A DNA stretch of 25,312 bases from a virus (lineage: Duplodnaviria > Heunggongvirae > Uroviricota > Caudoviricetes): the IMG/VR virus record IMGVR_UViG_648276668_000012. One strand, written 5' to 3'. The position numbers and the translations under genes were made by a program. Shown here piece by piece: positions 10,937-25,312 of the stretch. A model generated the notes under the pieces. The model was not told the origin of the DNA, searched no databases, and worked only from the letters and a program-made list of their open reading frames with translations. Within the stretch, counting starts at the first letter, position 1, and each line of letters starts with the position of its first letter.

Positions 10937-10981
10937 GCGTAGATCATGCACCTGCATGAAAACCACTATATAAAGCGGGCA

Positions 10982-11000
10982 GGCGTGGCGGGGATACGAG
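10982..11000 (+). other. cos-like site (candidate 19-nt cohesive end)
   Basis: GGCGTGGCGGGGATACGAG followed by CGCGCGCTGA. As I recall them, the P2 and 186 cohesive ends are GGCGAGGCGGGGAAAGCAC and GGCGTGGCGGGGAAAGCAT, followed by TGCGCGCTGA in P2. GGGGATACG is repeated at 10990-10998 and 11012-11020. Confidence 0.55.
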
Positions 11001-11087
11001 CGCGCGCTGATGGGGATACGGTGTTTTTAGTAAGGTTATGAGGTAGAATTTGACGCGGTTTTTTTAAGCATATTGAGGTGTAAATAG

Positions 11088-11633
11088 ATGGATGCTATTA
11101 CTGGATTATTGGATTTTTTTAGAAAGATTCCAACGGCACTTCTTGTAGCTATTACATGTGGTTTAAGTTTGATCCTTTTTTTGCCAGAATCTTTAGCTTC
11201 TAAAGTTGCGGTTGATGGTTTCCGTAAAGAATATAGAAATTTCATAGGACCAGCATTTTTACTGGCTGTCTCTTTTTTAGTTGCAAGAGTATATCAGTTT
11301 TTTCATGACCTATATGGCGATAGACAAAGGCACAAAGTACGTATCTCTTATTTGGAGAAGCTAACTCCTGAGGAGAAGGGATACCTCTGGTCTTATATAA
11401 TTGATGGCGAAAACTCACTAATGTGTGGTCCTGAAGATGGTGTTATGGGGGGGTTGGTTGCTAAGCGCATAACCTATAGAGCTGCAAACGTGGGCAGTAT
11501 GATTGACGGATTCGCTTTCAATTTGCAGCCGTGGGCTCGCGAGCATTTACAGAACAACACTCATTTATTAGAAGGAGCGGTCGGTAGGGCAATGACACCG
11601 GGTGAGAAACTAGGATTCAGGCGTAGATTTTAA
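11088..11633 (+). CDS. Membrane-anchored cargo protein, 181 aa; possible SieB-like superinfection-exclusion protein
   Basis: Two N-terminal TM helices (ALLVAITCGLSLILFL and FIGPAFLLAVSFLVARVY) precede a ~100-aa soluble domain. SD GAGGTG lies 8 nt upstream. The gene is AT-rich. The SieB assignment rests on architecture and memory only. Confidence 0.4.
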   Translation: MDAITGLLDFFRKIPTALLVAITCGLSLILFLPESLASKVAVDGFRKEYRNFIGPAFLLAVSFLVARVYQFFHDLYGDRQRHKVRISYLEKLTPEEKGYLWSYIIDGENSLMCGPEDGVMGGLVAKRITYRAANVGSMIDGFAFNLQPWAREHLQNNTHLLEGAVGRAMTPGEKLGFRRRF

Positions 11634-11677
11634 CCAGTCGCACACAGGCGATGCTTGACTGGTTAGACAGGGATAAT

Positions 11678-12715
11678 CTATTCAGCGTTCAACTGGTAGG
11701 GGTCAAAAGATATTATTGGCTCATTTAACCATTCGTTAAGTTCTTCAAGTCGCTTTTGTAAAGGAATTAACTCATTTCGCACAAAAACGCGGCTGGCCTT
11801 TTCCACATCCCCAAAACCTCCAACATTATTTGGCATAATCCCCATCATTTGCGGCGGCACGCGGTGCGCCGCCATCATGTCATCCCGGCTCACGTTCTTG
11901 ATGTTTAGAAACTCATCCTTTGCTGCGACCTCTGACAACGGGATGATCTGAAGCCCATCCTTTTTGCCGTTAGGCGAGTACATAAACAGGTTGCGGAAGT
12001 TGCCCGGACCTTTGGCGCTTTTCATCGCGTTGCGGAGGTTGTTTACGTCCTCCTGGTTCTGCGCAGCATCGGTCATGTACATGATGAAGCCTGCATGACT
12101 GCCGTTAATGTAATACTTGCGGCGGAACAGCGTGGCGGACTCGTTGAGCAGGGCTGACGGAATGGCAGAAAGATAACCGGGCAGGCCGTAGATCTCCTGG
12201 TTAATGTCCGGTTCCATCAGATGAAAAATGCTTCCTTTCGTGAACTGATACGGCTGGGTTGTCATACCGTATTGCACAAACCAGTAGGTATCCAGGTCTA
12301 ACCCGCGTCGGGTGTATTTTGCTAGTGCAGGCTCAAGGGCGATAACTTCACCGAAGCGGTTCGTGCGTTTCTCCAGGTAGGCGTTACCAAATACCAGATA
12401 GTCCTGCACAAAACGCGAAAAAGCTTGCTGGCTGAGCAGAGGATGAGGGATATAGGTACTGGTCAGAATGTTGCACTTTACTGCAATCGGGGAACTGTGA
12501 TGCACGGCAGCGCGGAAGGTGCGCGCCAGTCCGTCAAAGCTGACGGGCGGCTCATACCAACGGTCCATCTGTACGCATTCCACATAGTCCAGTAATTCTC
12601 GGCGGTCCAGAACAGGAACGGGATCGCCGAAGCTGAATGCTTCGGCTGAAGTCTGGCTTTTATTCTGGTTCTGGTTCGTCGACGCAGTGCGGTTTTTCTT
12701 ACTCTTTCCCATCAA
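11678..12715 (-). CDS. Q: Portal protein gpQ
   Basis: 345 aa. It overlaps the P stop and sits at the P2 Q position beside cos. Confidence 0.9.
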   Translation of the reverse strand: MMGKSKKNRTASTNQNQNKSQTSAEAFSFGDPVPVLDRRELLDYVECVQMDRWYEPPVSFDGLARTFRAAVHHSSPIAVKCNILTSTYIPHPLLSQQAFSRFVQDYLVFGNAYLEKRTNRFGEVIALEPALAKYTRRGLDLDTYWFVQYGMTTQPYQFTKGSIFHLMEPDINQEIYGLPGYLSAIPSALLNESATLFRRKYYINGSHAGFIMYMTDAAQNQEDVNNLRNAMKSAKGPGNFRNLFMYSPNGKKDGLQIIPLSEVAAKDEFLNIKNVSRDDMMAAHRVPPQMMGIMPNNVGGFGDVEKASRVFVRNELIPLQKRLEELNEWLNEPIISFDPYQLNAE

Positions 12716-14478
12716 AAAATCTCCACAATATTGCTGGTATTGGCGGACTCGCCCTGCAGCGGTTCGTTAAACAGTGCGTGCATCGTTGCCCAGGCCAGAT
12801 CGGCGTGGCTGGCTTCTTCGCTGCGGCTGGCTTCATAGGTTGGGCGGTTGCCACTGGCGGTGGTTGCGCGACGGATTGCCATGAATGACTGCGCAATGTC
12901 GGTGTGCCCGGCGTCAAACTCCAGACGGCGGTGGCTGATAATGTCGTAGGCCTTGAGTACCAGGGCGTTTTTAACGTTGGGGTTGTAGACAAACTCCCGG
13001 ACGGCAGGAAAGAACGCTTTCACGTTCTCGTAAACCCCGTGACCAACGCCGGTTGAGTCGATACCGATATAAGTCACGTTGTACTGTTCGGTAAGTTTTT
13101 TGATGGCGTCAGCTTGGGCGCGGAAGTCCATCCCGCGCCACTGGTGACGCTCAAGAATGCGGAACTTACCACCCGGCACGGCTGGCGGTGCCACCACCAC
13201 GCATCCAGCGCTGTCGCCGTTTTGCGTACCTTTTGCCGGGTCATAACCGATCCACACTTCGCGCCAGCCAAACGGGCGCAGCGCCAGTGCATGAAAGTCG
13301 GTCCAGACTTCCCAACTGTCCACCATGCACGCCTGCAGCTCGCTGAGCGGAAACACGGACGCGAGATCGTCCACAAACTCGCACATCAGCAGGTTCTGGT
13401 ATTCGTCCGGGCTGTACTCCATGCGTAGCTGGTCGAGGTCGAACAGGTTACAGCCGCCGCGCACCGCATCTTCCACGGTGACTATCTGGCGGTATTGCCC
13501 GTCTGCGCACAGCAGGCCGGGGGCCAGATTGCTGTGGGACAGGTCGATGTCCACCTTATCGGCTTTGTTGCGCCCACGGTTGAACAGCGCACCGGACCAG
13601 AACGGATAAGCACTGTGTGTCAGACTGGATGGCGTGGAAAAATAGGTTTGTCGCCATTTTTTGTGAATAGCCATACCGGAAGCCACTTTGCGCAGCTCCT
13701 GGAATTTCGGTATCCAGAAATATTCATCCAGATACAGGTTGCCGTGGTAACTCTGGGCCGTGCGGGCATTGGTGCCGAGGAAGTAAAGCGTGGCCCCGTT
13801 AGGAAGCACCATCGGATCGCCTTTCAGCTCCACCTCCACTTCTTTGGCAAAGTCGATGATGTACTGTTTAAAGACGTGGGCCTGAGCCTTGCTGGCAGAA
13901 AGGAAAATCTGGTTACGCCCGGTCAGCAGGGCGTCAATCAGGGCTTCACGGGCAAAGTAAAAGGTCGCGCCGATCTGGCGTGACTTCAGCAGGTTGCGGA
14001 TGCGGTTGGTTTTTCCGGCTTCCCACCAGTGGCGCTGGTAGTTGAACATAGAGGAATGGAAGATTTCTTCCAGTTTCTCAATCTGTTCATCGGTAAAAAC
14101 ATTCTTTTCCGGCTGACGACGTGGGCCTTTGTTGCGGTTGGCAACGTTAGGGTTTAAGTCGGCTTCGTTGCCGCCATTGTTAAACTTGCCGATCCGCGCG
14201 TGGCGCTCAGACTGGCGTGCCAGCAGGTCAATTTCTTTGAAATCTTTCCCTTCTTTGTGCTCCTTCATAATGAGCTGGCAGTAGCGTGCGGCGGTGGTGA
14301 GCTGCATCTGATCCAGCGGCCCATAGTCACCCCACTTGTCGCGTTTTTTCCAGCTGTGAACGGTTGCAACTTTCTCGCCCAGCATTTCAGCAATGCGGGC
14401 GACGCGGTATCCCTGAAAGTACAGCAGCATGGCCTGCCGACGGGGATCGAGATCTGCGGGTGTCAGTGTGGTGTTCAT
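12712..14478 (-). CDS. P: Terminase large (ATPase) subunit gpP
   Basis: 588 aa. It carries the Walker-A-like KSRQIGATFYFAREA and is in P2 gpP synteny. Confidence 0.9.
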   Translation of the reverse strand: MNTTLTPADLDPRRQAMLLYFQGYRVARIAEMLGEKVATVHSWKKRDKWGDYGPLDQMQLTTAARYCQLIMKEHKEGKDFKEIDLLARQSERHARIGKFNNGGNEADLNPNVANRNKGPRRQPEKNVFTDEQIEKLEEIFHSSMFNYQRHWWEAGKTNRIRNLLKSRQIGATFYFAREALIDALLTGRNQIFLSASKAQAHVFKQYIIDFAKEVEVELKGDPMVLPNGATLYFLGTNARTAQSYHGNLYLDEYFWIPKFQELRKVASGMAIHKKWRQTYFSTPSSLTHSAYPFWSGALFNRGRNKADKVDIDLSHSNLAPGLLCADGQYRQIVTVEDAVRGGCNLFDLDQLRMEYSPDEYQNLLMCEFVDDLASVFPLSELQACMVDSWEVWTDFHALALRPFGWREVWIGYDPAKGTQNGDSAGCVVVAPPAVPGGKFRILERHQWRGMDFRAQADAIKKLTEQYNVTYIGIDSTGVGHGVYENVKAFFPAVREFVYNPNVKNALVLKAYDIISHRRLEFDAGHTDIAQSFMAIRRATTASGNRPTYEASRSEEASHADLAWATMHALFNEPLQGESANTSNIVEIF

Positions 14479-14524
14479 GGCACAAACCTACAGCCTTGAA
14501 TGAAGGCTTTCCCCGCCTGCGGTT

Positions 14525-14542
14525 TGTGTGGTTGTCGGTACA
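14525..14542 (+). promoter_or_regulatory. Late-promoter activator dyad TGT-N12-ACA (Ogr/B-type), candidate PO
   Basis: TGTgtggttgtcggtACA in the divergent P-O intergenic region. Its centre is ~55 bp upstream of a predicted start near 14589, 30 nt before the O ATG. Confidence 0.45.
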
Positions 14543-14620
14543 AATACCGCGCATTGTTTCACTGCCCCCATCACCGCAACCATAAGGCTCCAGTAAGTTT
14601 TTTCTAACGGAGCACGGCTC

Positions 14621-15454
14621 ATGACAGTGAAAGCAAAGCGTTTTCGCATCGGGGTGGAAGGTGCCACCACCGACGGACGCGAAATCCAGCGTGAATGGCT
14701 GGAACAGATGGCAGCCAGCTACAACCCGGCGGTGTACACCGCGCTGATTAACCTTGAGCACATCAAGTCTTATCTGCCGGACAGCACCTTTAACCGCTAC
14801 GGCAAGGTGACGGCGCTGTTTGCTGAAGAAATCACGGAAGGTCCGCTGGCAGGCAAGATGGCATTGTATGCCGACGTTGAGCCAACGGAGTCCCTGGTGG
14901 AACTGGTGAAAAAAGGCCAGAAATTATTCACCTCTATGGAAGTCAGCCCGAAGTTTGCTGATACGGGCAAAGCCTATCTGGTCGGCCTGGCTGCCACTGA
15001 TGATCCCGCCAGTCTGGGTACGGAAATGCTGACATTCAGCGCCAGTGCAGCCCATAACCCGCTGGCAAACCGCAAGCAGAATCCCGCCAATCTTTTTACC
15101 GCTGCAGAGGAAACGGTGATCGAACTGGAAGAAGTCCAGGACGACAAACCGTCCCTGTTTGCCCGCGTCACGGCGCTGTTTACCAAAAAAGAGCAGTCCG
15201 ATGACGCCCGGTTCTCAGATGTGCATAAGGCCGTGGAGCTGGTCGCCACTGAGCAGCAGAACCTGAGTGCGCGCACCGAAAAATCCCTGTCTGAGCAGGA
15301 AGAACGCCTGTCTGAGCTGGAGACTGCCCTGCAGGCACAGCAAACCGCCTTTAACGAACTGGTGGACAAGCTGAGTCATGAAGACAGCCGCCAGGACTAC
15401 CGCCAGCGTGCAACAGGCGGTAACGCCCCCGCTGACACTCTGACCAATTGCTGA
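14621..15454 (+). CDS. O: Capsid scaffold (and maturation protease) gpO
   Basis: 277 aa with a coiled-coil-like C-terminus. Divergent from P, as in P2. Confidence 0.9.
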   Translation: MTVKAKRFRIGVEGATTDGREIQREWLEQMAASYNPAVYTALINLEHIKSYLPDSTFNRYGKVTALFAEEITEGPLAGKMALYADVEPTESLVELVKKGQKLFTSMEVSPKFADTGKAYLVGLAATDDPASLGTEMLTFSASAAHNPLANRKQNPANLFTAAEETVIELEEVQDDKPSLFARVTALFTKKEQSDDARFSDVHKAVELVATEQQNLSARTEKSLSEQEERLSELETALQAQQTAFNELVDKLSHEDSRQDYRQRATGGNAPADTLTNC

Positions 15455-15470
15455 TGGAGCACAAAACCCG

Positions 15471-16529
15471 ATGAAGAAGAATACCCGCTTTGCTTTTAAC
15501 GCTTACCTGCAGCAGCTGGCGCGTCTGAACGGTGTGGCAGTTGAAGAACTGTCCAGCAAATTCACTGTGGAGCCGTCTGTGCAGCAGACGCTGGAAGACC
15601 AGATCCAGCAGTCCGCCGCTTTCCTGACGCTGATTAACGTCACGCCAGTGACTGAGCAGTCCGGTCAGCTGCTGGGGCTGGGTGTTGGCAGCACCATTGC
15701 CGGAACCACTGACACCACCGCGAAAGAGCGTGAACCTGTCGATCCGACGCTGATGGTCGATGTGGAATATAAATGCGAGCAGACCAACTTTGACACGGTG
15801 CTGACCTACGCGAAGCTGGACCTGTGGGCGAAGTTTCAGGATTTCCAGGTGCGTATCCGTGACGCCATCGTGAAACGTCAGGCACTGGACCGCATCATGA
15901 TCGGCTTTAACGGCGTGAAGCGTGCGAAAACCTCCAACCGTAGTGAAAACCCGCTGCTGCAGGATGTGAACAAAGGCTGGCTGCAGAAAATCCGTGAGGA
16001 TGCACCGGATCACGTCATGGGCAGCACCACCACGGGCGGCGAAACCACACCGGGTGCGGTGAAAGTCGGGAAAGGTGGCGAATATGCCAACCTGGACGCT
16101 GTAGTGATGGATGCGGTCAATGAGCTTATCGACGTGGTCTACCAGGATGATGACGATCTGGTGGTGATTTGCGGTCGTGAACTGCTGTCTGACAAGTATT
16201 TCCCGCTGGTCAACAAAGAGCAGGAAAACAGTGAAAAACTGGCTGCCGATATGATCATCAGTCAGAAACGCATGGGTGGCCTGCAGGCCGTGCGTGCGCC
16301 GTTCTTCCCGCCGAATGCGCTGCTGATCACCCGTCTGGATAACCTGTCCATCTACTGGCAGGAAGACACCCGCCGCCGTTCAGTTATCGACAACCCGAAA
16401 CGTGACCGGATTGAAAACTTTGAATCCGTTAATGAAGCCTATGTGGTTGAGGACTACCGCTGCGCCGCACTGGTGGAAAACATCCAGATTGGCGATTTCA
16501 GCGCCGCCGCAGCAGAAACCGGAGCGTAA
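15471..16529 (+). CDS. N: Major capsid protein gpN
   Basis: 352 aa at the P2 N position, with P2-type size. Confidence 0.9.
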   Translation: MKKNTRFAFNAYLQQLARLNGVAVEELSSKFTVEPSVQQTLEDQIQQSAAFLTLINVTPVTEQSGQLLGLGVGSTIAGTTDTTAKEREPVDPTLMVDVEYKCEQTNFDTVLTYAKLDLWAKFQDFQVRIRDAIVKRQALDRIMIGFNGVKRAKTSNRSENPLLQDVNKGWLQKIREDAPDHVMGSTTTGGETTPGAVKVGKGGEYANLDAVVMDAVNELIDVVYQDDDDLVVICGRELLSDKYFPLVNKEQENSEKLAADMIISQKRMGGLQAVRAPFFPPNALLITRLDNLSIYWQEDTRRRSVIDNPKRDRIENFESVNEAYVVEDYRCAALVENIQIGDFSAAAAETGA

Positions 16530-16532
16530 TCC

Positions 16533-17183
16533 ATGAGCCTGAGTCCCGCACGGCAGCATCGCCTGCGCGTTCAGGCTGAACAGGCCGCCCGCGAGGGCGG
16601 CAGTGTTCGCCACGCGTCGGGCTATGACCTGATGCTGCTGCAACTGGCGGAAGACCGCCGCCGTCTCAAGGGCGTTCAGTCCACGGTCAAAAAAGCGGAA
16701 ATCAAGGTGGAGCTGCTGCCGAAGTACGCCGCCTGGGCGGAGGGTGTCCTGGCTGCCGGAGGCGCTCAACAGGATGACGTGCTGATGTACGTGATGCTGT
16801 GGCGTATTGATGCCGGAGATTATGCCGGGGCGCTGGAGATTGGGCGTCATGCCCTGCGTCATGGCTGGGTGATGCCGCTGGGTAACCGCAACGTGCAGAC
16901 CGTGCTGGCAGAGGAAATGGCAGACGCGGCGCAGAGCGCAATGCTTGCCGCCACCGGCTTTGATGCTGATCTGTTGCTGCAGACGCTGGAGCTGACAGAC
17001 GGTCTGGATATGCCGGACCAGTCACGGGCGCGTCTGCATAAAGCGATTGGCGCGGTCCTGAGTGAAAGCAATCCGGCTTCCGCCCTTAATCATCTCAACC
17101 ATGCGTTACAGCTCGATCCCCGCTGTGGCGTGAAAAAAGACAAACAGCAGCTGGAGCGCAGACTGCGCAATGACAGCCGCTGA
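16533..17183 (+). CDS. M: Terminase small/endonuclease subunit gpM
   Basis: 216 aa at the P2 M position. Confidence 0.85.
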   Translation: MSLSPARQHRLRVQAEQAAREGGSVRHASGYDLMLLQLAEDRRRLKGVQSTVKKAEIKVELLPKYAAWAEGVLAAGGAQQDDVLMYVMLWRIDAGDYAGALEIGRHALRHGWVMPLGNRNVQTVLAEEMADAAQSAMLAATGFDADLLLQTLELTDGLDMPDQSRARLHKAIGAVLSESNPASALNHLNHALQLDPRCGVKKDKQQLERRLRNDSR

Positions 17184-17277
17184 CAGAACGTGCCCCGCGC
17201 ACGGGCGGCACGGGGTGGCGAAAGGCACAGCCACATCAAAACTCCGTCCACCGCCCTCTATTTCAGGAGAAAGCAGC

Positions 17278-17742
17278 ATGAAGTTTGTTGCGCCAGAACA
17301 GGCACCGGAACAGGCGGAAATCATCAGAAATACGCCGTTCTGGCCTGATGTGGACCTGTCGGAGTTTCGCAGTGTCATGCGCACTGACGGCACGGTGACG
17401 CAGCCGCGTTTAAAGCAGGTTGCGCTGTCGGCAATTTCGGAGGTCAACGCAGAGCTGTATGAGTTTCGCAGACGCCAGCAGATGCTGGGGTATGCGTCGC
17501 TGGCAGAGGTTCCGGCGGAACAGCTGGACGGGAAAAGTGAGCGCATTCAGCACTATTTCAACGCGGTTTACTGCTGGGCACGCGCCATGCTCAACGAACG
17601 ATACCAGGACTATGACGCCACGGCATCCGGTGTGAAGCGAGGCGAAGAACTGGCGGAAGCCAGCGGTGATTTGTGGCGTGACGCCCGCTGGGCCATCAGC
17701 CGGGTGCAGGACGCGCCGCACTGCACAGTGGAGCTTATCTGA
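17278..17742 (+). CDS. L: Head completion protein gpL
   Basis: SD AGGAG lies 8 nt upstream of the ATG at 17278, giving 154 aa. The track ORF starts earlier, at 17170. Confidence 0.85.
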   Translation: MKFVAPEQAPEQAEIIRNTPFWPDVDLSEFRSVMRTDGTVTQPRLKQVALSAISEVNAELYEFRRRQQMLGYASLAEVPAEQLDGKSERIQHYFNAVYCWARAMLNERYQDYDATASGVKRGEELAEASGDLWRDARWAISRVQDAPHCTVELI

Positions 17743-17945
17743 TGAAAGTGCGTGCGCATCAGTATGACACGGTGGACGCGCTTTGCTGGCGTCATTACGG
17801 GCGCACGCAGGGTGTCACGGAGCAGGTACTGAAGGCAAATCCGGGGCTTGCCGAATACGGCCCCTTTTTACCTCACGGGCTGCAGGTGGAGCTGCCGGAC
17901 ATTCCGACCACCACCACTGTGCAGACCGTCCAGTTATGGGACTGA
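17742..17945 (+). CDS. X: Tail protein gpX
   Basis: 67 aa, MKVRAHQYDTVDALCWRHYGRTQGVTEQVLKANPGLA, matching the P2 gpX pattern. Confidence 0.9.
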   Translation: MKVRAHQYDTVDALCWRHYGRTQGVTEQVLKANPGLAEYGPFLPHGLQVELPDIPTTTTVQTVQLWD

Positions 17946-17948
17946 ATT

Positions 17949-18164
17949 ATGACGCTTGAGCGAATCAGCGCCTTTATCACGTATTGCATCGCCGTCGTGC
18001 TGGCCTGGCTGGGCGATTTGTCCATCAAGGATGCCTCCACGCTGGGCGGCCTGATGATCGGTGTGCTGATGCTGGCTATCAACTGGTACTACAAACACAA
18101 AGCCTACCAGCTTCTGCGCGACGGGCAGATCTCGCGGGAGGACTATGAATCCATCAATCGTTAA
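17949..18164 (+). CDS. Holin (gpY position)
   Basis: 71 aa with two hydrophobic helices and a charged C-terminus. It sits immediately upstream of the endolysin. Confidence 0.8.
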   Translation: MTLERISAFITYCIAVVLAWLGDLSIKDASTLGGLMIGVLMLAINWYYKHKAYQLLRDGQISREDYESINR

Positions 18165-18657
18165 AGGCTGCCTTGTCGGGGCCGTGCTGGCTATTGCTGC
18201 CACGCTGCCGGGTTTTCAGCAGCTTCACACCTCCGTGGAGGGGCTGAAACTGATTGCCGATTACGAAGGTTGTCATCTGCAGCCGTATCAGTGCAGCGCG
18301 GGTGTCTGGACCGACGGCATTGGTAATACATCTGGCGTCATTCCAGGCAAAACCATTACGGAACGACAGGCAGCGGAAGGACTGATCTCCAACGTGCTGC
18401 GTGTGGAGCGGTCACTGGAAAGGTGTGTGAAGCAACAGCCACCGCAGAAGGTGTATGACGCGGTGGTGTCATTTGCCTTCAACGTGGGAACGGGCAATGC
18501 CTGCAGCTCCACGCTGGTGAAATTGCTCAATCAGCGGCGCTGGGCGGATGCGTGCCGACAGTTGCCGCGCTGGGTTTATGTAAAAGGTGTGTTTAATCAG
18601 GGGCTGGATAACCGCCGTGCGCGGGAGATGGCCTGGTGTTTACAGGGAGCAAACTGA
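18145..18657 (+). CDS. GH24 lysozyme-type endolysin with an N-terminal signal-anchor-release (SAR)-like helix
   Basis: The N-terminus is CLVGAVLAIAATLPG. The catalytic region EGLKLIADYEGC...VWTDGIGNT shows an E-D-T triad pattern. The C-terminus C..LPRWVY..G....GL.NRRARE resembles P21-type lysozymes. Confidence 0.85.
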   Translation: MNPSIVKGCLVGAVLAIAATLPGFQQLHTSVEGLKLIADYEGCHLQPYQCSAGVWTDGIGNTSGVIPGKTITERQAAEGLISNVLRVERSLERCVKQQPPQKVYDAVVSFAFNVGTGNACSSTLVKLLNQRRWADACRQLPRWVYVKGVFNQGLDNRRAREMAWCLQGAN

Positions 18658-18658
18658 A

Positions 18659-19036
18659 ATGAAAAAGAAATTAATCAGCGGACTGTTTCTGATGTTATGG
18701 ATGGCGCTGTTAATCGCAGCAATGGTGTATCCGCAGGGGATTTTTCCGGTACTGGCAGCGTCCGGCGTTTGGGTAGCCTGTTTGCTGACATGGGCGGTAA
18801 TTCCGGTAGCACTGGCTGCGTTAATTAAGAATGGCCCGCTCTGGCAGGAGTTAAGGGCATCTTTGCTGAAGACAATTACCCGAAAAGAAAACGTATTTAC
18901 CAGTTGGGTGATGCGATTGCTGATTGTTGTAAGTCTCGCCTGGACGGGGTGGGCTATTACCCTGGTCTTTTATCTACTGACCGTTATTGCCTTCTGGATC
19001 ACCCGTAATCAGATGGCGCAACAGGTAGCAGCATGA
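18659..19036 (+). CDS. lysA: LysA-like membrane protein (lysis timing)
   Basis: 125 aa with four hydrophobic segments, at the P2 lysA position. Confidence 0.7.
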   Translation: MKKKLISGLFLMLWMALLIAAMVYPQGIFPVLAASGVWVACLLTWAVIPVALAALIKNGPLWQELRASLLKTITRKENVFTSWVMRLLIVVSLAWTGWAITLVFYLLTVIAFWITRNQMAQQVAA

Positions 19037-19461
19037 ACCGGTTGCTGCTGGTTGTGCTGACGTTATTACTGGCGGCGCTGGGCTGGCAGACGTGGCGGCT
19101 GGCTGATGCCAGCCAGACCATCAGCACGCAGGCAGACGAGCTGCAGAGCAAAAGCCAGGCACTGGCAAAGAGCAACAGCCAGCTTATCAGCCTGTCCATT
19201 CTGACTGAAACCAATAACCGGGAGCAGGTGCGGCTCTATGCCGAAGCAGAACAGACCAGCACGCTGCTGAGACAACGACAACACCGGATCGAGGAACTGA
19301 AACGTGAGAACGAGGATTTACGCCGCTGGGCTGATACTCCTTTGCCTGCTGACATTATCCGGCTGCGGAAACGTCCGGCACTCACCGGAGGTATGGCTTA
19401 CCGTCAGTGGTTGTCCGCGAGTGACGCCGTGTCGGCTGGATCAGGCAACGCCGCGCACTAA
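19033..19461 (+). CDS. lysB: i-spanin (Rz-like) LysB
   Basis: An N-terminal TM helix is followed by a coiled-coil region. ATGA overlap with lysA. Confidence 0.8.
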   Translation: MNRLLLVVLTLLLAALGWQTWRLADASQTISTQADELQSKSQALAKSNSQLISLSILTETNNREQVRLYAEAEQTSTLLRQRQHRIEELKRENEDLRRWADTPLPADIIRLRKRPALTGGMAYRQWLSASDAVSAGSGNAAH

Positions 19462-19594
19462 CGGTGATCTGAACGCGTTGCTGGATGAAACGGAGGCCGC
19501 CTGGGCGGTCTGTGCAGACAAAGTGGACATGATTATTGCGTGTCAGGAGCGAAACAGTGAACAAACCACAATCCCTGCGCCACGCCCTCAATAA
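19304..19594 (+). CDS. lysC: o-spanin (Rz1-like lipoprotein) LysC, overlapping the lysB 3' end in another frame
   Basis: GTG start at 19304 with SD GAGGA. Lipobox LTLSGC (Cys21). It extends past the lysB stop, as in the P2 lysB/lysC architecture. Confidence 0.8.
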   Translation: MRTRIYAAGLILLCLLTLSGCGNVRHSPEVWLTVSGCPRVTPCRLDQATPRTNGDLNALLDETEAAWAVCADKVDMIIACQERNSEQTTIPAPRPQ

Positions 19595-19988
19595 AGCGGT
19601 GCCTTATGTCCGCAATAACCCGGACAAACTGCATCTGTTTGTGGATAACGGTTCGCTGGTTGCCACGGGGGCCAGCTCCATGTCGTGGGAGTACCGTTAC
19701 ACACTGAACGCGGTGATTGAGGATTTCAGCGGCGACCAGAATCTGCTGATGGCCCCGGTTTTGCTGTGGCTGAGGGATAACCAGCCCGATGCCATCAATA
19801 ACCCGGCGTTACGGGAAAAGCTATTCACCTTTGAGGTGGATATTCTGCGCAACGATGTCTGTGATATCAGCCTGAACCTGCAACTGACGGAGCGTGTGCT
19901 GGTCAGCACTGACGGCAGTGTGTCGAGCGTTGAAGCTATAGCGGAACCTGATGCACCTGAAGAAATGTGGACGGTGAAACGTGGCTGA
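19557..19988 (+). CDS. R: Tail completion protein gpR
   Basis: SD AGGAG lies 6 nt before the GTG at 19557. The sequence VNKPQSLRHALNKAVPYVRNNPDKLHLFVDNGS is like the P2 gpR N-terminus. Confidence 0.85.
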   Translation: MNKPQSLRHALNKAVPYVRNNPDKLHLFVDNGSLVATGASSMSWEYRYTLNAVIEDFSGDQNLLMAPVLLWLRDNQPDAINNPALREKLFTFEVDILRNDVCDISLNLQLTERVLVSTDGSVSSVEAIAEPDAPEEMWTVKRG

Positions 19989-20427
19989 ACTGCAGAAGGT
20001 GGACGACTGGCTGAGTGCCTTGCTGGCGAATCTGGAACCAGCCACGAGAAGCCGCATGATGCGCCAGCTGGCGCAGGAACTTCGCCGGACACAGCAGCAG
20101 AACATCAGGATGCAGCGTAATCCTGATGGCAGCAGCTATGAACCGCGAAGGGTAACAGCACGCAGTAAAAAGGGGCGCATCAAACGTCAGATGTTTACAA
20201 AGCTTCGCACCACAAAATACCTGAAAACTGCCGCCAGCGCCGATTCTGCCAGCGTGCAGTTTGAAGGTAAGGTACAGCGCATTGCCCGTGTTCATCACTA
20301 CGGCCTGCGTGATCGCGTCAGTCGTAATGGTCCGCGAGTACACTATGCAGAGAGACGGCTGTTAGGGATAAATGCTGAAGTAATTAAGCTCATTCAAGAT
20401 ATGATATTTAGAGTCGTTACAAATTAA
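19981..20427 (+). CDS. S: Tail completion protein gpS, with its last ~20 codons encoded by AT-rich insert DNA
   Basis: 148 aa from a GTG start overlapping the R stop. Composition changes abruptly near 20365 (…RRLLG|INAEVIKLIQDMIFRVVTN). Confidence 0.8.
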   Translation: MAELQKVDDWLSALLANLEPATRSRMMRQLAQELRRTQQQNIRMQRNPDGSSYEPRRVTARSKKGRIKRQMFTKLRTTKYLKTAASADSASVQFEGKVQRIARVHHYGLRDRVSRNGPRVHYAERRLLGINAEVIKLIQDMIFRVVTN

Positions 20428-20445
20428 CACTTCGAAGCTAGTAAA

Positions 20446-20475
20446 AATTAGAGTGACATAATTGCCACTCTAATT
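20446..20475. terminator. Hairpin between convergent genes (bidirectional terminator candidate)
   Basis: AATTAGAGTG (20446-20455) pairs with CACTCTAATT (20466-20475) across a 10-nt loop. On the minus strand it is followed by a T-run. Confidence 0.5.
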
Positions 20476-20482
20476 AATGCGT

Positions 20483-21427
20483 TTAAATTTCGGATTTGGT
20501 TTCAAGGTTTCTCAATGTATTCGGTATCAATGTTTCACTGAATCCAGAAAGCGCACAAATCACATAAATGGAGAATGAGATGTCACTACTATTATTCATA
20601 AACCCGAAGATAATATTCCCCTTGAGCATAAAGTATACAAGTACGCCAGCCATCATTGAAAGGAGTATTCTCTCCGCACCATAGAAGAAATAAGTTTTCT
20701 TTTTTAGTTCTCTGTCTGTATGGAGGCTTTTTATTTTTAGGGATACAGAAATAAACCCCCCGATGGAAGCAAAGGAAGCGGCGTATAACACCACTGGAAT
20801 AAAGTGATTAGCTTTTATGAAATTAGAATCTCTAGCCAAATATGTTATCAATGCAAGGATGATGAATATCAATGCTAAAGTTATGGCTCCTGATTGATAT
20901 AAATTCCTTCCAAGCATTGTGTTTTCATAATCGTTTTTAATGTCTCTATTTATTGCGGCGAAGTTATTTTTGTTTATATCATTTTTTCCAAGTATTGTTG
21001 CTGACATAACTGTTGCTGCTCTTTTTTTATAAATAGAAGAGCAGTTGTATTTGTAGCAATGTGAAATAAACTCATCAAAGTGCTCTTTTGAAGCATGATA
21101 TCTATCAATCTTACTGTCATCCTCCTCAATGATTGAGTCTATGAAAACGAGCATAGACTCATGAGGCGGAAGATTGGCTACTTCATAAATGACATATTCA
21201 TCCCCACGTGAATAAATTTTACTTATGGTGTTTCCACCCAAATCTGTTCCACCAACGACGTATTTGCCAATTCTTTCTTGCTGTTTTTTTTTGTATTCAT
21301 CCCTCTCCTTCTTTGTAGGTGGGGGATTGATGGGATCATTCATTGCATCCATGGGGACAATATTATCTTGCTCAGCTGCTTCTGGGGTATTGGTGTTAGT
21401 TGTCATTTTTTGTGTAGTTAATGTCAC
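20483..21427 (-). CDS. Cargo membrane protein: ~170-aa soluble N-domain plus a C-terminal 4-TM module
   Basis: TM segments are AITLALIFIILALITYLA, FIPVVLYAASFASIGGFISVSL, ILLSMMAGVLVYFML and FSIYVICALSGFSETLI. The gene is very AT-rich and on the opposite strand to its late-gene neighbours, at the P2 orf30 position. The start is uncertain (GTG 21427 or ATG 21406, neither with a clear SD). Confidence 0.6.
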   Translation of the reverse strand: MTLTTQKMTTNTNTPEAAEQDNIVPMDAMNDPINPPPTKKERDEYKKKQQERIGKYVVGGTDLGGNTISKIYSRGDEYVIYEVANLPPHESMLVFIDSIIEEDDSKIDRYHASKEHFDEFISHCYKYNCSSIYKKRAATVMSATILGKNDINKNNFAAINRDIKNDYENTMLGRNLYQSGAITLALIFIILALITYLARDSNFIKANHFIPVVLYAASFASIGGFISVSLKIKSLHTDRELKKKTYFFYGAERILLSMMAGVLVYFMLKGNIIFGFMNNSSDISFSIYVICALSGFSETLIPNTLRNLETKSEI

Positions 21428-21428
21428 A
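21411..21428 (+). promoter_or_regulatory. TGT-N12-ACA dyad upstream of V (candidate PV activator site)
   Basis: TGTgtagttaatgtcACA. The centre is only ~55 bp from the V ATG, so the spacing is not ideal. This pattern is expected by chance a few times in 25 kb. Confidence 0.25.
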
Positions 21429-21474
21429 AGGAAAGTGGATATAAATATACAAATAGTACAAATAAAATCAACTT

Positions 21475-22053
21475 ATGAACGCACAACTGACTGAAATCAT
21501 GCGCCTTATCACCAATCTGATCCGCACAGGTGTAGTCACCGAAGTGGACCGGGAGAACTGGCTTTGCCGGGTGAAAACGGGCGACCTTGAAACCAACTGG
21601 ATCAGCTGGCTGACCCTGCGTGCCGGGAATGCCCGCACATGGTGGAAACCATCGGAAGGTGAGCAGGTGGTGCTGCTGAGTCTGGGCGGCAATCTGGAGA
21701 CCGCCTTTGCGCTGCCCGCTGTCTATTCGAATCAGTTCGCACCACCGTCGACGTCGGCGGACGCCTGCGTGACAGAACATCCTGACGGTGGCTGGTTTGA
21801 ATACGAACCCGCCACCGGGCGCTGGTATGTCAGGGGCATCAAATCAATGGTCATTGAGGCCGCTGACAACATCACCATGAAAACCAGTGAGTTTGTACTG
21901 GAGGCTGACCGCACGCGCATTAACAGCGAAGTGGTGATCAATGGTGGCGTTAACCAGGGCGGCGGAGCGATGAGTTCTAACGGGATCGTGGTTGATGCGC
22001 ATCAGCATACTGGCGTCCTGAAAGGCGGCGATACAACCGGAGGCCCGGTATGA
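21475..22053 (+). CDS. V: Baseplate spike/assembly protein gpV
   Basis: The 192-aa sequence ...LIRTGVVTEVD...WLTLRAGNARTWWKPSEGEQVVLLSLGGNLETAF aligns by eye with P2 gpV. Confidence 0.9.
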   Translation: MNAQLTEIMRLITNLIRTGVVTEVDRENWLCRVKTGDLETNWISWLTLRAGNARTWWKPSEGEQVVLLSLGGNLETAFALPAVYSNQFAPPSTSADACVTEHPDGGWFEYEPATGRWYVRGIKSMVIEAADNITMKTSEFVLEADRTRINSEVVINGGVNQGGGAMSSNGIVVDAHQHTGVLKGGDTTGGPV

Positions 22054-22409
22054 CGCTTTATAGCGGGATGAACAATACCAGCGGCAAAGTCATTACTGAT
22101 ATTGATCATCTGCGCCAGTCGGTGCGGGACATTCTGCTGACACCGCAGGGTAGCCGTATTGCCCGCCGGGAATATGGTTCCCTCCTGTCGGTTTTAATAG
22201 ATCAGCCACAAAATCCGGCATTACGCCTGCAGGTCATGTCGGCAGTGTATGTGGCGCTGAGTCGCTGGGAGCCACGGCTGACGCTGGATTCCATCACCAT
22301 CAACAGCAACTTTGACGGTTCTATGGTGGTGGAGCTGACCGGGCGGCGGAATAACGGTGTGCCTGTGTCCCTTTCCGTATCAACAGGAGCAGAGAATGGC
22401 AGTGATTGA
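22050..22409 (+). CDS. W: Baseplate wedge protein gpW (gp25-like)
   Basis: 119 aa. ATGA overlap with V and P2 synteny. Confidence 0.85.
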   Translation: MTLYSGMNNTSGKVITDIDHLRQSVRDILLTPQGSRIARREYGSLLSVLIDQPQNPALRLQVMSAVYVALSRWEPRLTLDSITINSNFDGSMVVELTGRRNNGVPVSLSVSTGAENGSD

Positions 22410-23304
22410 CCTTTCGCAGTTGCCTGCACCGCAGATTGTGGATGTGCCGGACTTTGAGACGCTGCTTGCCGAACGCAAGGCAGAATTTGTGGCGCTTCAT
22501 CCGAAAGATGAGCAGGAAGCCGTGATCCGAACGCTGGAACTGGAATCTGAACCCGTCACTAAATTGTTGCAGGAGAACGCTTACCGTGAGTTGCTTCTGC
22601 GCCAGCGCATTAACGAAGCCGCGCAGGCGGTGATGGTGGCTTACGCGATGGGCGGCGATCTTGACCAGCTCGCTGCCAACTACAACGTGACACGCCTGAC
22701 GGTGACGCCTGCTGATAATGATGCTGTGCCGCCCGTTGCAGCTGTGATGGAAAGCGATGAAGCGTTACGCCTGCGTGTGCCTGCAGCCTTTGAAGGGCTT
22801 TCTGTTGCGGGGCCAACTGCAGCTTATGAATTTCATGCCCGAAGCGCCGACGGTCGGGTGGCGGATGCCAGTGCAACCAGCCCGGCACCTGCAGAGGTGG
22901 TGCTGACTGTCCTTAGCCGCGAAGGCGATGGAACTGCAGAAAAAGACCTGCTGGACGTGGTGGAAAAAGCTCTGAACAGTGAGAACGTCCGCCCGGTGGC
23001 TGACCGGCTGACGGTTCGCAGCGCAGAAATCATCCCGTATCGCGTGGAAGCCACCATTTTTCTCTATCCGGGACCGGAAGCAGAGCCGGTAATGGCAGCG
23101 GCAAAAGCCAGCCTGCAGAAGTACATCGCCAGTCAGACGCGTCTTGGTCGGGATATTCGCCGTAGCGCCATCTTTGCCGCCCTGCATGTTGAGGGTGTGC
23201 AGCGTGTGGAGCTGGCTTCTCCTCTGGCGGATGTGGTCCTGAACAAAACACAGGCGGCATCATGTACGCAGTGGAGCGTAACCAACGGAGGAACGGATGA
23301 ATAG
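22396..23304 (+). CDS. J: Baseplate wedge protein gpJ
   Basis: SD AGGAG lies 6 nt upstream of the ATG at 22396, giving 302 aa. Confidence 0.85.
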   Translation: MAVIDLSQLPAPQIVDVPDFETLLAERKAEFVALHPKDEQEAVIRTLELESEPVTKLLQENAYRELLLRQRINEAAQAVMVAYAMGGDLDQLAANYNVTRLTVTPADNDAVPPVAAVMESDEALRLRVPAAFEGLSVAGPTAAYEFHARSADGRVADASATSPAPAEVVLTVLSREGDGTAEKDLLDVVEKALNSENVRPVADRLTVRSAEIIPYRVEATIFLYPGPEAEPVMAAAKASLQKYIASQTRLGRDIRRSAIFAALHVEGVQRVELASPLADVVLNKTQAASCTQWSVTNGGTDE

Positions 23305-23902
23305 TCTGCTGCCACCGGGTTCAACTTCACTGGAGCGCCGACTGGCGCAAACCTGTAGCGGGATTTCTGATCTGCAGGTGCCGCTGCGTGACTTGTGGAA
23401 TCCGGCTACCTGTCCGGTCAGTTTCCTGCCTTATCTCGCCTGGGCGTTCTCTGTGGATCGCTGGGACGAGGGCTGGACAGAAAGCGTCAAACGCCAGGTA
23501 GTGAAGGATGCTTTTTATATTCATCAGCATAAAGGAACCACCAGTGCCGTGCGGCGGGTGGTGGAACCGTTCGGATTCCTGATCCGCATTATTGAGTGGT
23601 GGCAGACCGGAGAAACACCGGGCACGTTTCGCCTGGATATCGGCGTGCAGGACCAGGGCATCACTGAAGATACCTATCTGGAACTTGAGCGGCTGATAAG
23701 CGATGCCAAACCATGTAGCCGTCACATGAGCGGCATGTCCATCAATCTGCAGACCAGCGGTCCGCATTGGGTGGGGGCTGCCAGCTATCTTGGTGAAGAA
23801 ATCACGATCTATCCGTATATCAACGAAACAATTATTTCCGGCGGCACCGCGCATGAAGGTGGGGCGGTCCATGTTATTGACACAATGAGAGTGAATCCAT
23901 GA
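23297..23902 (+). CDS. I: Baseplate/tail-fibre attachment protein gpI
   Basis: 201 aa. It overlaps the J stop and the H start. Confidence 0.85.
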   Translation: MNSLLPPGSTSLERRLAQTCSGISDLQVPLRDLWNPATCPVSFLPYLAWAFSVDRWDEGWTESVKRQVVKDAFYIHQHKGTTSAVRRVVEPFGFLIRIIEWWQTGETPGTFRLDIGVQDQGITEDTYLELERLISDAKPCSRHMSGMSINLQTSGPHWVGAASYLGEEITIYPYINETIISGGTAHEGGAVHVIDTMRVNP

Positions 23903-25312
23903 GCACAAAATTTTATACCCTGCTGACGGATATTGGCGCGGCGAAACTTGCCAGCGCCGCCGCGCTCGGTGTGCCTTTAAAAAATTACCCATATGGCGGT
24001 CGGCGATGGCGGCGGAACATTGCCAACGCCGGACGCAAAGCAGACAGCATTGGTAAATGAGAAACGCCGGGCTGCGCTGAATATGCTCTATATCGACCCG
24101 CAGAACAGCAGCCAGATTATTGCTGAACAGGTGATCCCTGAAAACGAGGGCGGTTGGTGGATACGTGAAGTGGGCCTGTTTGATGAGTCCGGGGCATTGA
24201 TTGCCGTGGGCAACTGCCCGGAAAGCTATAAGCCGCAACTGGCTGAAGGCAGCGGGCGCACCCAGACCGTGCGCATGGTGCTGATTACCAGCAGCACGGA
24301 CAATATCACCCTGAAAATCGACCCTGCCGTCGTGCTGGCAACCCGCAAGTATGTGGATGACAAGGTACTGGAGCTGAAGGTGTACGTGGATGATAAGATG
24401 GCAAAACATCTTGCCGCACCGGACCCGCATTCACAGTATGCACCCAAAGAAAGCCCGACATTGACCGGAACACCCAAAGCGCCAACGCCAGCGGAGGGGA
24501 ATAACACCACGCAGATTGCGACCACCGCGTTTGTTCAGGCGGCACTGACGGCCCTTATTAATGGTGCGCCAGCCACACTGGATACGCTGAAAGAAATTGC
24601 CGCTGCCATTAATAATGACCCGAAATTCAGTACCACCATTAACAATGCGCTGGCACTAAAAGCACCGCTGTCGAGTCCGGCACTCACCGGAACGCCAACA
24701 GCCCCCACGGCGGCGCAGTCGGTCAACAATACACAGATTGCCACTACGGCTTTTGTGAAATCGGCGATTGCGGCAATGGTGGGTTCTGCACCTGCGGCAC
24801 TGGATACACTGAATGAACTGGCTGCGGCGCTGGGGAATGACCCGAACTTTGCCACGACAATGCTTAATGCGCTGGCAGGCAAACAACCGCTGGACAATAC
24901 GTTGACTAATTTGAGTGGAAAAGATGTTGCTGGTCTTCTCGCATACCTTGGTTTGGGAGAAGGTGCTCCAGCTATTGGCGTTCCGTTCTTCTGGCCCTCC
25001 GCGGCAATGCCAAATACTGTAATCGACAGCTGGTCCGGTATGGTGTTTTTGAAGTTCAACGGGGCGAAATTTTCTGCCTCTGATTACCCTGTGCTGGCGA
25101 AAGTGTTTCCTGCGCTGGTATTACCTGAAGCCCGCGGTGATTTCATTCGTATCTGGGATGACGGGCGAGGTGTAGACGGTGGTCGCATGTTGTTAAGCGC
25201 ACAGGACTTTGCTCAGCAGCGTATAACAGGGGATTTCATGGGGGGAGCTATGGGTAGCTCTGGCTCAATAAAAGCGGGTGCACTTGTTAATTCTTACACC
25301 AATTACGGTGCT
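23899..25312 (+). pseudogene. H: Tail-fibre gene H, interrupted by a 1-nt frameshift in an A6 run; 3' end beyond the window
   Basis: The ATG at 23899 gives MSTKFYTLLTDIGAAKLASAAALGVPLK, then runs out of frame to a TGA at 24058-24060. The +1 frame continues (K)ITHMAVGDGGGTLPTPDAKQ...AEGSGRTQTVRMV to 25312 without a stop. Together the two parts match the conserved P2 gpH N-terminus (…ITTMAVGDGGGKLP…). The distal part has a tail-collar-like motif, LPEARGDFIR. The open-ended ORF is absent from the track because it has no stop in the window. Confidence 0.8.
24452..24895 (+). repeat. Two tandem 222-nt (74-aa) tail-fibre repeats within H
   Basis: Copy 1 reads SPTLTGTPKAPTP..NNTTQIATTAFVQAAL..GAPATLDTLKEIAAAINNDPKF. 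Copy 2, from 24674, reads SPALTGTPTAPTA..NNTQIATTAFVKSAI..SAPAALDTLNELAAALGNDPNF. Confidence 0.85.

Follow-up and report, generated by a model that had tools for sequence, protein, structure and literature searches.

The window analysed here is a stretch of 25,312 nucleotides from a viral record (IMGVR_UViG_648276668_000012), and its DNA is 97% identical to a P2-like prophage of E. coli W. Between the tail genes gpS and gpV of this window lies an AT-rich segment with one gene on the minus strand, termed the cargo gene below. Pfam identifies the flanking genes as gpR (PF06891), gpS (PF05069), and gpV (PF04717 and Apex). The GC content is 0.29-0.42 over positions 20300-21500 and 0.51-0.63 on both sides; for the cassette itself it is 0.35, whereas the flanks have 0.57. 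This AT-rich stretch represents one allele of a swap-in cassette that fills the gpS-gpV slot of P2/186-like prophages, and this slot is the boundary of two late operons, between the terminator of the O operon and pV, an Ogr-dependent promoter. With the cassette come the 3′ end of gpS, a hairpin terminator, a single gene pointing leftward, and the complete promoter region of pV. Its features and those adjoining it are as follows:

19981-20427, plus strand: gpS, tail completion, last gene of the late O operon (PF05069, E 8e-41)
20367-21474, no strand assigned: exchangeable AT-rich accessory cassette in the gpS-gpV (P2 "orf30") slot, delimited by GC, breakpoints, and the P2 layout
20446-20475, no strand assigned: hairpin with a 4-nt loop, probable intrinsic terminator of the cargo gene, with a U5 tail on the minus strand
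20483-21406, minus strand: cargo coding sequence, unannotated membrane-protein family, 307 aa (314 aa from an alternative GTG at 21427)
20519-20545, minus strand: family signature GFSETLIPN at the cytoplasmic end of TM4, residues 288-296
20525-20890, minus strand: four transmembrane (TM) helices, residues 173-294, predicted from hydropathy, loop charges, and the AF2 model
20894-21316, minus strand: predicted cytoplasmic N-domain and long helix into TM1, residues 31-171, AF2 pLDDT about 90
21411-21428, plus strand: TGT-N12-ACA dyad TGTGTAGTTAATGTCACA, probable Ogr/Delta-type activator site of pV with P2-like geometry
21444-21471, minus strand: candidate sigma-70 promoter of the cargo gene (-35 TTGATT at 21471-21466, 16-nt spacer, -10 TATATT at 21449-21444)
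21463-21468, plus strand: TAAAAT, putative -10-like element of pV, proposed from sequence and the P2 annotation
21475-22053, plus strand: gpV, baseplate spike, first gene of the V late operon (PF04717, PF18946)

Comparison with eleven other S-V junctions delimits the cassette. On the right, homology breaks at 21472-21475 in all eleven; on the left, the breakpoints span 20323-20381, with nine at 20366-20381 and two earlier, at 20323-20334. The shifts in composition that an earlier note on this DNA had placed at about 20365 and 21470 coincide with these breakpoints. The last 46-61 or so nucleotides of gpS (from 20367-20382) are AT-rich and part of the variable cassette, which substitutes the final 15-20 codons of the gene. 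Identity is 97-98% for R, V, and W but 86% for gpS, and in an E. coli prophage whose R, V, and W show this level of identity (97-98%), the cargo allele is only 60% identical. All E. coli junction cassettes compared have a GC content of 0.31-0.37. In the present one, the non-coding DNA amounts to 55 and 68 nt, and there is a single gene. This gene does not interrupt a late operon, as had been claimed, but sits between the O-operon terminator and the pV promoter. Its likeness in position to P2 orf30 was rightly recognized (minus strand, AT-rich, between S and V); the order annotated in P2 is S, terminator, minus-strand orf30, activator site, and V. The orf30 locus is one of three with horizontally acquired genes in P2-like phages (PMC3091744), and the view of the present gene as horizontal cargo agrees with a cassette that looks exchanged, with foreign GC and breakpoints common to other alleles. 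Such a design suits the study of how essential phage operons can take up cargo between them and stay intact, and permits a test of anti-coupling between cargo expression and late transcription.

The hairpin at the left of the cassette has two arms of 13 nt each (20446-20458 and 20463-20475) with one mismatch; it is real and flanks the gene as described earlier, although the length of 10 bp given at that time was wrong. On the minus strand, the RNA folds with -15.9 kcal/mol (z -4.8) and continues into U5; on the plus strand, it folds with -14.8 kcal/mol (z -3.7). Its position is that of the O-operon terminator in P2. An Rfam search of the cassette found no RNA. On the right, the centre of the dyad lies 55.5 nt upstream of the V ATG, within the 5′ leader of the cargo gene, at the same distance from V as the annotated Ogr site in P2. 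A TGT-N12-ACA dyad occurs at -55.5 to -57.5 in all eleven E. coli junctions, the empty one included. Judged by sequence, a terminator after S and an Ogr-type site about 55 nt before V thus both appear to be kept in the cassette.

The earlier note also proposed that the gene has its own promoter, and here the evidence points both ways. The candidate promoter overlaps the core promoter of pV. The GTATATT block that holds its -10 element is invariant in six distinct family alleles, which favours the proposal, and the segment 21394-21513 is the best-conserved part of the region (95%, versus about 80% around it). However, a scan with the promoter consensus found three matches versus 4.4 expected in shuffled AT-rich sequence. 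The TAAAAT element of pV would stand at -12 to -7 if transcription begins at the V ATG, as annotated for P2.

The minus-strand open reading frame has 314 aa when started at GTG (20483-21427), as described earlier, while the PGAP start of the identical gene in the E. coli W prophage, an ATG at window position 21406, gives 307 aa (WP_001350048.1, 100% identical); residues are numbered from the latter start. Other records of the gene have starts giving 289 or 286 aa. The first 25-30 or so residues are unconserved and modelled at low confidence, and no Shine-Dalgarno sequence could be read by eye before any candidate start codon. By our own arithmetic, the chance of an open frame of 314 codons in DNA of 35% GC is about 1e-10. 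Intact copies are widespread, and dN/dS against a 92%-identical allele is 0.04, denoting strong purifying selection. Since the open frame is so improbable, full-length homologues exist across phyla, and dN/dS is this low, the frame is not a product of chance; that the segment is an accessory cassette carrying a real membrane-protein gene is close to certain.

The protein consists of a soluble domain and four TM helices, and the earlier note was correct in this respect. Its hydrophobic segments (173-191, 205-223, 247-265, and 276-294) match helices of the AF2 model, which has a mean pLDDT of 82.9. The N-domain is modelled as an alpha/beta fold of about 140 residues with a helix, three strands, and two helices. 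The role of a sensor that had been ascribed to it is an assumption; the domain has no recognizable relative. Conserved residues within 31-171 are G52, D55, G58, Y74, and Y170, and those of the TM region include G216, G217, and S220 in TM2 and G243 and R246 at the start of TM3. The signature residues G288, F289, S290, E291, and P295 are each present in 91-99% of 123 diverse members, and the near-invariant positions of the family are Y74, G216, S220, R246, G288-E291, and P295. Loop 2 contains five K/R residues, loop 1 one, and loop 3 none, as read by the positive-inside rule. The protein has no signal peptide, and its two predicted periplasmic loops are short, at about 9 and 13 residues. We infer that it lies in the inner membrane with the N-domain and the C-terminus facing the cytoplasm. 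With this topology, the cytoplasmic face of the membrane would bear a conserved cluster of polar residues, made up of R167/Y170, GG-x2-S (TM2), G-x-ER (start of TM3), and GFSE-x3-P (end of TM4).

The family comprises 2679 cluster representatives at a cutoff of E<=1e-3 and 164 at the stricter E<=1e-30, all unannotated and spread across phyla (Proteobacteria and Bacteroidota), and 42 close clusters show conservation along the full length. Pfam, PADLOC, NCBIfam, and PHROGs gave no meaningful match to the cargo protein, whether nuclease or otherwise for the N-domain; a profile search against PDB sequences found nothing, and structure comparison with the PDB and BFVD gave no specific match. PADLOC-DB v2.0.0, a check that the earlier note had suggested, contains no model that matches the protein at E<=10. 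The protein has no Pfam match to YLATT (PF20303) at E<=1, and seven of the 123 relatives match this model below threshold (best E 2.7e-4). Three of the 123 weakly match Phage_holin_2 (E 0.016), and the weak Rhomboid, holin, and DUF matches among the relatives are taken as noise from TM composition. A holin or antiholin was considered and rejected: the gene is on the opposite strand and outside the holin-lysozyme-LysB/C block at about 17.9-19.5 kb. Neither Pfam nor the PDB has a match for the N-terminal extensions of two fusion proteins (P0065 and P0067). A tblastn search did not find the cargo protein in the collections of isolated phages and plasmids, no mention of WP_001350048 was found in a literature search, and none of three accessions was found in the DefensePredictor supplements.

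Across 19 loci, an all-against-all BLAST of neighbours revealed no conserved partner gene within 5 kb; the recurring pairs are only generic ones (two-component, methylase, acyltransferase). With no such partner and a single-gene cassette, two-component abortive infection of the RexAB, CBASS, or Pycsar kind was set aside. Some distant homologues belong to integrase islands that also contain R-M or an AbiJ-NTD4 protein, some to integrative elements, and others adjoin ParDE or stand near type III R-M, Tmn, or PDC-M19A. The surroundings of several others are housekeeping or hypothetical genes, and neither a mobile element nor a defence island is apparent there.

The cargo gene and P2 orf30 (NP_046770) are alike in many respects. 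Both occupy the gpS-gpV slot on the minus strand at a GC of 0.35 and a size of about 0.9-1.0 kb, with a terminator before and the Ogr site of pV after; both have TM-like segments, and Orf30 is non-essential. In RefSeq, E. coli cassettes of the same size at the S-V slot are annotated as DUF6216. The identical slot and strand, the similar size, and the TM segments of both proteins could be read to mean that the cargo protein is a divergent orthologue of Orf30 (DUF6216) and shares its function. At the level of detectable homology, however, such an orthologue is already refuted. BLASTP gives an E of 7, hhalign of the 123-sequence profile against Orf30 a probability of 0.2%, and the family HMM matches neither Orf30 nor any other slot allele. 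The architectures differ as well, in that Orf30 has three TM-like peaks spread along its length, whereas the cargo protein has its N-domain and then a block of four TM helices. Orthology thus has next to no probability left. The earlier note had counted clear homology to Orf30 with a known non-defence role against its own proposal; since the cargo protein is not homologous to Orf30, that argument does not apply.

The slot itself is more informative. A survey of the S-V junction for allelic cargo, as the earlier note had suggested, shows that 19 of 49 sampled E. coli junctions (about 40%) are occupied, by at least ten unrelated single genes. Five of ten unrelated slot genes match PADLOC models, namely SIR2 (an LmuA/ThsA-like allele), TIR, PDC-S15, PDC-S31, and PDC-S59, the PDC models being candidates rather than validated systems. 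Because known defence-type proteins are among the products of the unrelated genes found there, the cargo gene is a candidate phage-defence gene; a defence role expressed in the lysogen is plausible, and it is location that makes it so. The accessory defence genes old, tin, and Z/fun of P2, with the gpA-gpQ and Z/fun hotspots, are comparable, being AT-rich, lysogen-expressed cargo at fixed slots of P2-like prophages with many unrelated alleles, defence systems among them, but they lie in other slots than S-V, and the present gene is a candidate. P2 defence hotspots are known within the tail genes (PMC13586616), and the hotspot papers deal mainly with the gpA-gpQ and Z/fun loci (Rousset, 2022; Vassallo, 2022). 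The S-V slot is barely covered there, at most as a hotspot "within the tail genes / downstream of GpL", and in E. coli it already holds SIR2, TIR, and PADLOC candidates as interchangeable single-gene cassettes.

These observations can be assembled into a proposal. In the lysogen, where pV is silent, the cargo gene would be transcribed from a sigma-70 promoter of its own that overlaps pV, and activation of pV by Ogr would probably shut it off. The product would act as a stand-alone anti-phage protein, whose cytoplasmic N-domain may detect a cue of infection to which the TM bundle would respond, most likely by oligomerizing and depolarizing or permeabilizing the inner membrane (abortive infection). 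An anti-phage role of any kind we regard as an even bet. Abortive infection through membrane permeabilization is a more tentative proposition. Equally speculative is the broader reading, in which the family would be a new self-contained immunity protein (sensor and four-TM effector with no partner) and the S-V slot a largely unmined single-gene defence hotspot. In that reading, an Ogr-dependent pV comes with each cassette and overlaps the promoter of its cargo, so that expression would persist in the lysogen and cease upon late activation, whether the switch is the firing of the prophage's own late genes or an Ogr/Delta-type activator of an incoming P2-like phage or P4-type satellite.

The lambda RexB protein is a membrane effector with four TM helices. 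RexB and the CBASS 2TM/4TM, Pycsar TM, and SLATT/YLATT effectors likewise carry a multi-TM C-terminal module on a cytoplasmic domain, and PADLOC returned scattered weak matches to TM effectors in single members of the 123 relatives, with SLATT, "2TM_IV", and "4TM effector" models among them (best 3.6e-4). The cargo protein itself matches none of these models, shows no significant homology to such effectors, and has no sensor, cyclase, or RexA-like partner gene. SNIPE (PMC13190303), a nuclease bound to the membrane and active when the genome is injected, is similar in concept as a single membrane-anchored defence protein, but the N-domain of the cargo protein matches no known family, nuclease or otherwise. 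If protective, the cargo protein would enlarge the single-gene membrane defences by a new fold and a new family, one of about 2,700 cluster representatives with none annotated; if it has no defence phenotype, it is one more orphan moron.

SieA, Imm, and HK97 gp15 exclude phages at the inner membrane without killing the cell. The cargo protein could act in the same manner, with the incoming genome or injection machinery blocked or attacked and the cell surviving, and a prophage-encoded protein predicted in the inner membrane with a large cytoplasmic domain would fit. A SieB-family gene (11088-11633) in another hotspot of the same prophage shows that such cargo is common, and membrane localization alone can provide self/non-self discrimination, as for SNIPE (PMC13190303). 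Yet the periplasmic loops are short, the near-invariant residues lie at the predicted cytoplasmic face, and the N-domain has no Pfam, NCBIfam, PHROG, or PDB-sequence match. Neither Pfam nor PHROGs links the protein to SieB or other exclusion families (SieA, Imm, Sim), and members of the family also occur in islands outside phages in various phyla, an unusual distribution for exclusion proteins specific to phages. Exclusion without cell death is unlikely, though not negligible.

A similarly low probability is given to an accessory membrane protein outside defence, serving lysogenic conversion (envelope, stress, or transport) or modulating prophage induction or lysis. In its favour are the lack of homology to any defence family and the homologues in ordinary chromosomal neighbourhoods, and hotspots of P2-like phages also hold non-defence cargo such as cytolethal distending toxin and tail-fibre modules (10.1101/2024.10.15.618418). 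The occupants of the slot (SIR2, TIR, and PADLOC-candidate single genes) tell against it, as do the many family members in mobile elements beside R-M, TA, and Abi-domain genes, and the orientation and position of the gene argue against a late lysis function. Far less probable still is a toxic membrane protein that stabilizes the prophage as an addiction module, its antidote being an antisense RNA or encoded elsewhere. A small multi-TM protein could be toxic, and one homologue adjoins ParDE, but the 55 and 68 nt of non-coding DNA leave no room for a second gene, Rfam found no RNA, no neighbour is conserved, and intact copies under a dN/dS of 0.04 are widespread.

In Klebsiella/Enterobacter-type phages, the cargo is 92% identical and the capsid 69% identical, a difference that raised the idea of a recent transfer of the cassette into these phages. 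Two findings led us to drop it: synonymous sites have almost reached saturation (pS 0.53), and identity over the cassette DNA is only about 85%. Strong purifying selection on the cargo explains the gap between cargo and capsid identity better than recent transfer.

The cargo gene of the window, a P2/186-like prophage whose late genes start at ~14.6 kb, occupies the minus strand between gpS and gpV. Positions 11754-24962 share 97% identity with the P2-like prophage of E. coli W, and the main features are as follows.

1-1056, integrase
1135-1506, minus strand, ASCH-domain ORF
3674-4327, CI repressor
10214-10639, minus strand, unannotated 141-aa ORF
11088-11633, plus strand, SieB-family superinfection-exclusion gene (PF14163, E 2e-22)
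11678-12715, portal-like ORF (synteny with E. coli W)
12712-14478, terminase-like ORF (synteny with E. coli W)
19981-20427, gpS (PF05069)
20483-21427, minus strand, cargo ORF
21411-21428, TGT-N12-ACA dyad, within the cargo 5′ leader
21475-22053, gpV (PF04717)

As the earlier note had described, the cargo is an AT-rich ORF (GC 0.29-0.42 vs 0.51-0.63 in the flanks) encoding four hydrophobic segments after a soluble N-terminal part of ~170 aa. The 10-bp hairpin described beside it is real, but its arms are longer (20446-20458 and 20463-20475, 13 nt each with one mismatch); its minus-strand transcript has a folding energy of -15.9 kcal/mol (z -4.8), with U5 directly after. The start codon is uncertain. 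Counted from GTG, the protein has 314 aa; PGAP starts at the ATG at 21406, giving a 307-aa form with 100% identity in E. coli W, and other records annotate starts giving 289 or 286 aa. The 307-aa form is adopted here, since MTT is also the N-terminus of close relatives and the dyad, a probable Ogr/Delta-type activator site, falls between GTG and ATG.

In the AF2 model (mean pLDDT 82.9), residues 1-25 form a disordered tail and 32-47 a helix, after which come three strands (60-67, 71-76, and 85-89), two helices (98-120 and 124-138), and a long helix (150-190) that continues into TM1; three more TM helices follow. The K/R counts of the loops (five in loop 2, one in loop 1, none in loop 3) and the absence of a signal peptide place the N-domain and C-terminus, by prediction, in the cytoplasm, with periplasmic loops of ~9 and ~13 residues. 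Conservation among 123 diverse members is highest at G52, D55, G58, Y74, Y170, G216, G217, S220, G243, R246, G288-F-S-E291, and P295, and those in the TM region would all be close to the membrane's cytoplasmic face in the predicted topology.

The protein had no match in Pfam, NCBIfam, PDB sequences, or PADLOC, the last a check that the earlier note had proposed, PHROGs gave a noise-level match at best, and no homologue among characterized proteins was found. A word-indexed search returned 42 clusters, all "hypothetical" and conserved over ~88-100% of their length, from Enterobacterales, Vibrio, Bowmanella, Burkholderia, Rugosibacter, Flavobacterium, and Hymenobacter. Among 1.84 billion cluster representatives, a profile search picked out 2679 at E<=1e-3 (164 at E<=1e-30), and the best 150 listed are almost all 250-310 aa and matched full-length; a second profile search again recovered unannotated proteins only. 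The identical protein occurs on 417 contigs, and variants of at least 90% identity are found in Enterobacter, Klebsiella, Raoultella, and Salmonella. Kinship with a known family is hinted at only weakly, through relatives of the window protein: PF20303 (YLATT) has sub-threshold matches in 7 of the 123 (best E 2.7e-4), and CBASS-type 2TM/4TM and SLATT models match single members weakly. Two metagenomic relatives, P0065 (763 aa) and P0067 (442 aa), have N-terminal extensions of ~480 and ~160 aa fused to the entire family module; the extensions are related to each other and have no match in Pfam or among PDB sequences.

Enterobacterales members of the family sit in the same S-V slot in the same orientation, as seen in E. 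coli, Pantoea, Citrobacter, and P2-like contigs of IMG/VR. One E. coli prophage matches the window at 97-98% identity in R, V, and W but at only 60% in the cargo, which shows allele replacement by recombination. Comparison with a 92%-identical allele gives a dN/dS of 0.04, with synonymous sites near saturation, and thus a strongly constrained protein. Outside Enterobacterales, no conserved neighbour was found among 19 loci, so the gene works as a single unit. Homologues there include one in a Burkholderia integrase island with a type II R-M system, one in an integrated conjugative or plasmid-like element of Bowmanella, one adjoining an AbiJ-NTD4 protein in an integrase/DUF3987 island, one in an AEP-primase element, one beside ParDE, and one adjoining a primase/helicase gene on a non-P2 viral contig. 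Others lie within 5 kb of type III R-M (two loci), Tmn, and PDC-M19A (a PADLOC candidate defence family), and some have plain chromosomal neighbours.

In the P2 annotation, S is followed by the terminator of the O operon, the non-essential orf30 (261 aa) on the minus strand, the activator site of the late promoter pV, and V, whose transcription start is its start codon. The S-V site is therefore the junction of two late operons, and not the interior of an uninterrupted one as had been assumed. The parallel drawn with orf30 holds for position but not for descent, kinship with P2 Orf30 being rejected (BLASTP E 7; hhalign probability 0.2%). When the window was compared with eleven further S-V junctions from E. 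coli, homology broke off within gpS, at 20366-20381 for nine of them and at 20323-20334 for the other two, and resumed at 21472-21475, the V ATG; these points coincide with the composition breakpoints noted earlier. The exchangeable unit thus comprises the last 15-20 gpS codons, of which each cassette carries its own, the terminator, the cargo gene, and the entire pV promoter region. GC is 0.31-0.37 in every cassette examined. The dyad has its centre 55.5-57.5 nt upstream of the V ATG in all 11 E. coli S-V alleles examined for it (loci L031-L039 and L044 among them), even in a 68-bp empty junction, and the sequence around it is unrelated between junctions, so that each cassette brings its own version of the pV promoter.

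The survey of this junction that the earlier note had called for revealed many different single-gene occupants. Megablast with S-cargo-V as query matched 1051 of 5426 complete E. coli genomes, 11 of which carry this cargo at >=99.9% identity. Of the rows listed, which were evenly spaced down the ranking, 49 had S and V joined as one match; 30 of these have an empty junction (1094-1100 bp) and 19 an occupied one. The occupants are single genes, mostly on the minus strand. They encode SIR2, TIR, an FRG-domain protein, a DUF2971 protein, a protein of 429 aa, four further hypothetical proteins, and DUF6216-annotated proteins in P2-sized cassettes. SIR2 and TIR run in the direction of the late genes (plus strand), and FRG, DUF2971, PDC-S59, P2 orf30, and the other hypotheticals run opposite. 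At least ten cassettes are mutually unrelated save one related pair, and none is related to the window protein. PADLOC models match five of ten occupants: SIR2 (LmuA/ThsA-like), TIR (PDC-S66/SpbK, weak), and one each for PDC-S15, PDC-S31, and PDC-S59 (E 2e-197). TM-like segments also occur in loci L037/L038 and in P2 Orf30. Two 4.83-Mb "DH5alpha"-labelled assemblies (NZ_CP026085.1 and NZ_CM135829.1) carry this cargo of the E. coli W-type prophage with 99.9% identity and may be mislabelled W derivatives.

A putative sigma-70-like promoter precedes the cargo on the minus strand (-35 TTGATT, 21471-21466; -10 TATATT, 21449-21444). Such a match is not statistically significant in DNA so AT-rich, and the comparative evidence is stronger: in six distinct family alleles (proteins 60-92% identical) a GTATATT block is invariant in the same place, and a TTGAxT/TTTAAT block and the dyad are also kept. 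In comparison with the L051 allele, 21394-21513 is, at 95%, better conserved than any other part of the 2-kb S-V region. The putative promoter and the pV core overlap, with the -35 of the former lying over TAAAAT at pV -12 to -7, and the dyad would cover approximately positions +10 to +27 of the cargo transcript. This arrangement suggests that the cargo would be transcribed from its own promoter in the lysogen while pV is silent, and that activation of pV by Ogr would probably occlude it.

The cargo is a real, stand-alone gene under constraint and is carried on mobile elements. Together with a cytoplasm-facing domain on a four-TM bundle and a slot rich in defence-type single genes, this makes a lysogen-expressed anti-phage protein the best-supported reading, at about an even chance; all of the functional reading draws on location and architecture. 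The defence interpretation of the earlier note is plausible, its support being location and context. On the same grounds, the likeliest mode, tentatively, is infection-triggered membrane permeabilization leading to abortive infection. The main rival, a non-abortive block at genome entry, for which SNIPE is the comparison system, is rather unlikely, and an accessory role outside defence is about as improbable. As a defence candidate the gene is well defined and cheap to test.

As hotspot cargo of P2-like prophages, a kind already known, the gene is new and unannotated but not surprising in itself. orf30 is one of three horizontally acquired gene regions of P2-like phages (PMC3091744; PMC6823313), the hotspot studies consulted deal chiefly with the gpA-gpQ and Z/fun loci, and a 2026 survey places defence systems "within the tail genes / downstream of GpL" (PMC13586616). 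In the window, the gpA-gpQ (old/tin) hotspot spans 10064-11754 and holds the SieB-family gene and the 141-aa ORF, in place of which the E. coli W prophage, elsewhere 95-97% identical, has a GmrSD endonuclease. A third variable locus lies on the minus strand between integrase and CI (1135-3651), where, besides the ASCH-domain ORF, two ORFs (233 and 356 aa) have no Pfam match; in E. coli W a KAP-family NTPase adjoins CI. A 174-aa minus-strand ORF (24535-25059) without a Pfam match sits where identity with E. coli W ends (24962), in the tail-fibre/Z-fun region, and may be part of a variable tail-fibre or Z/fun locus.
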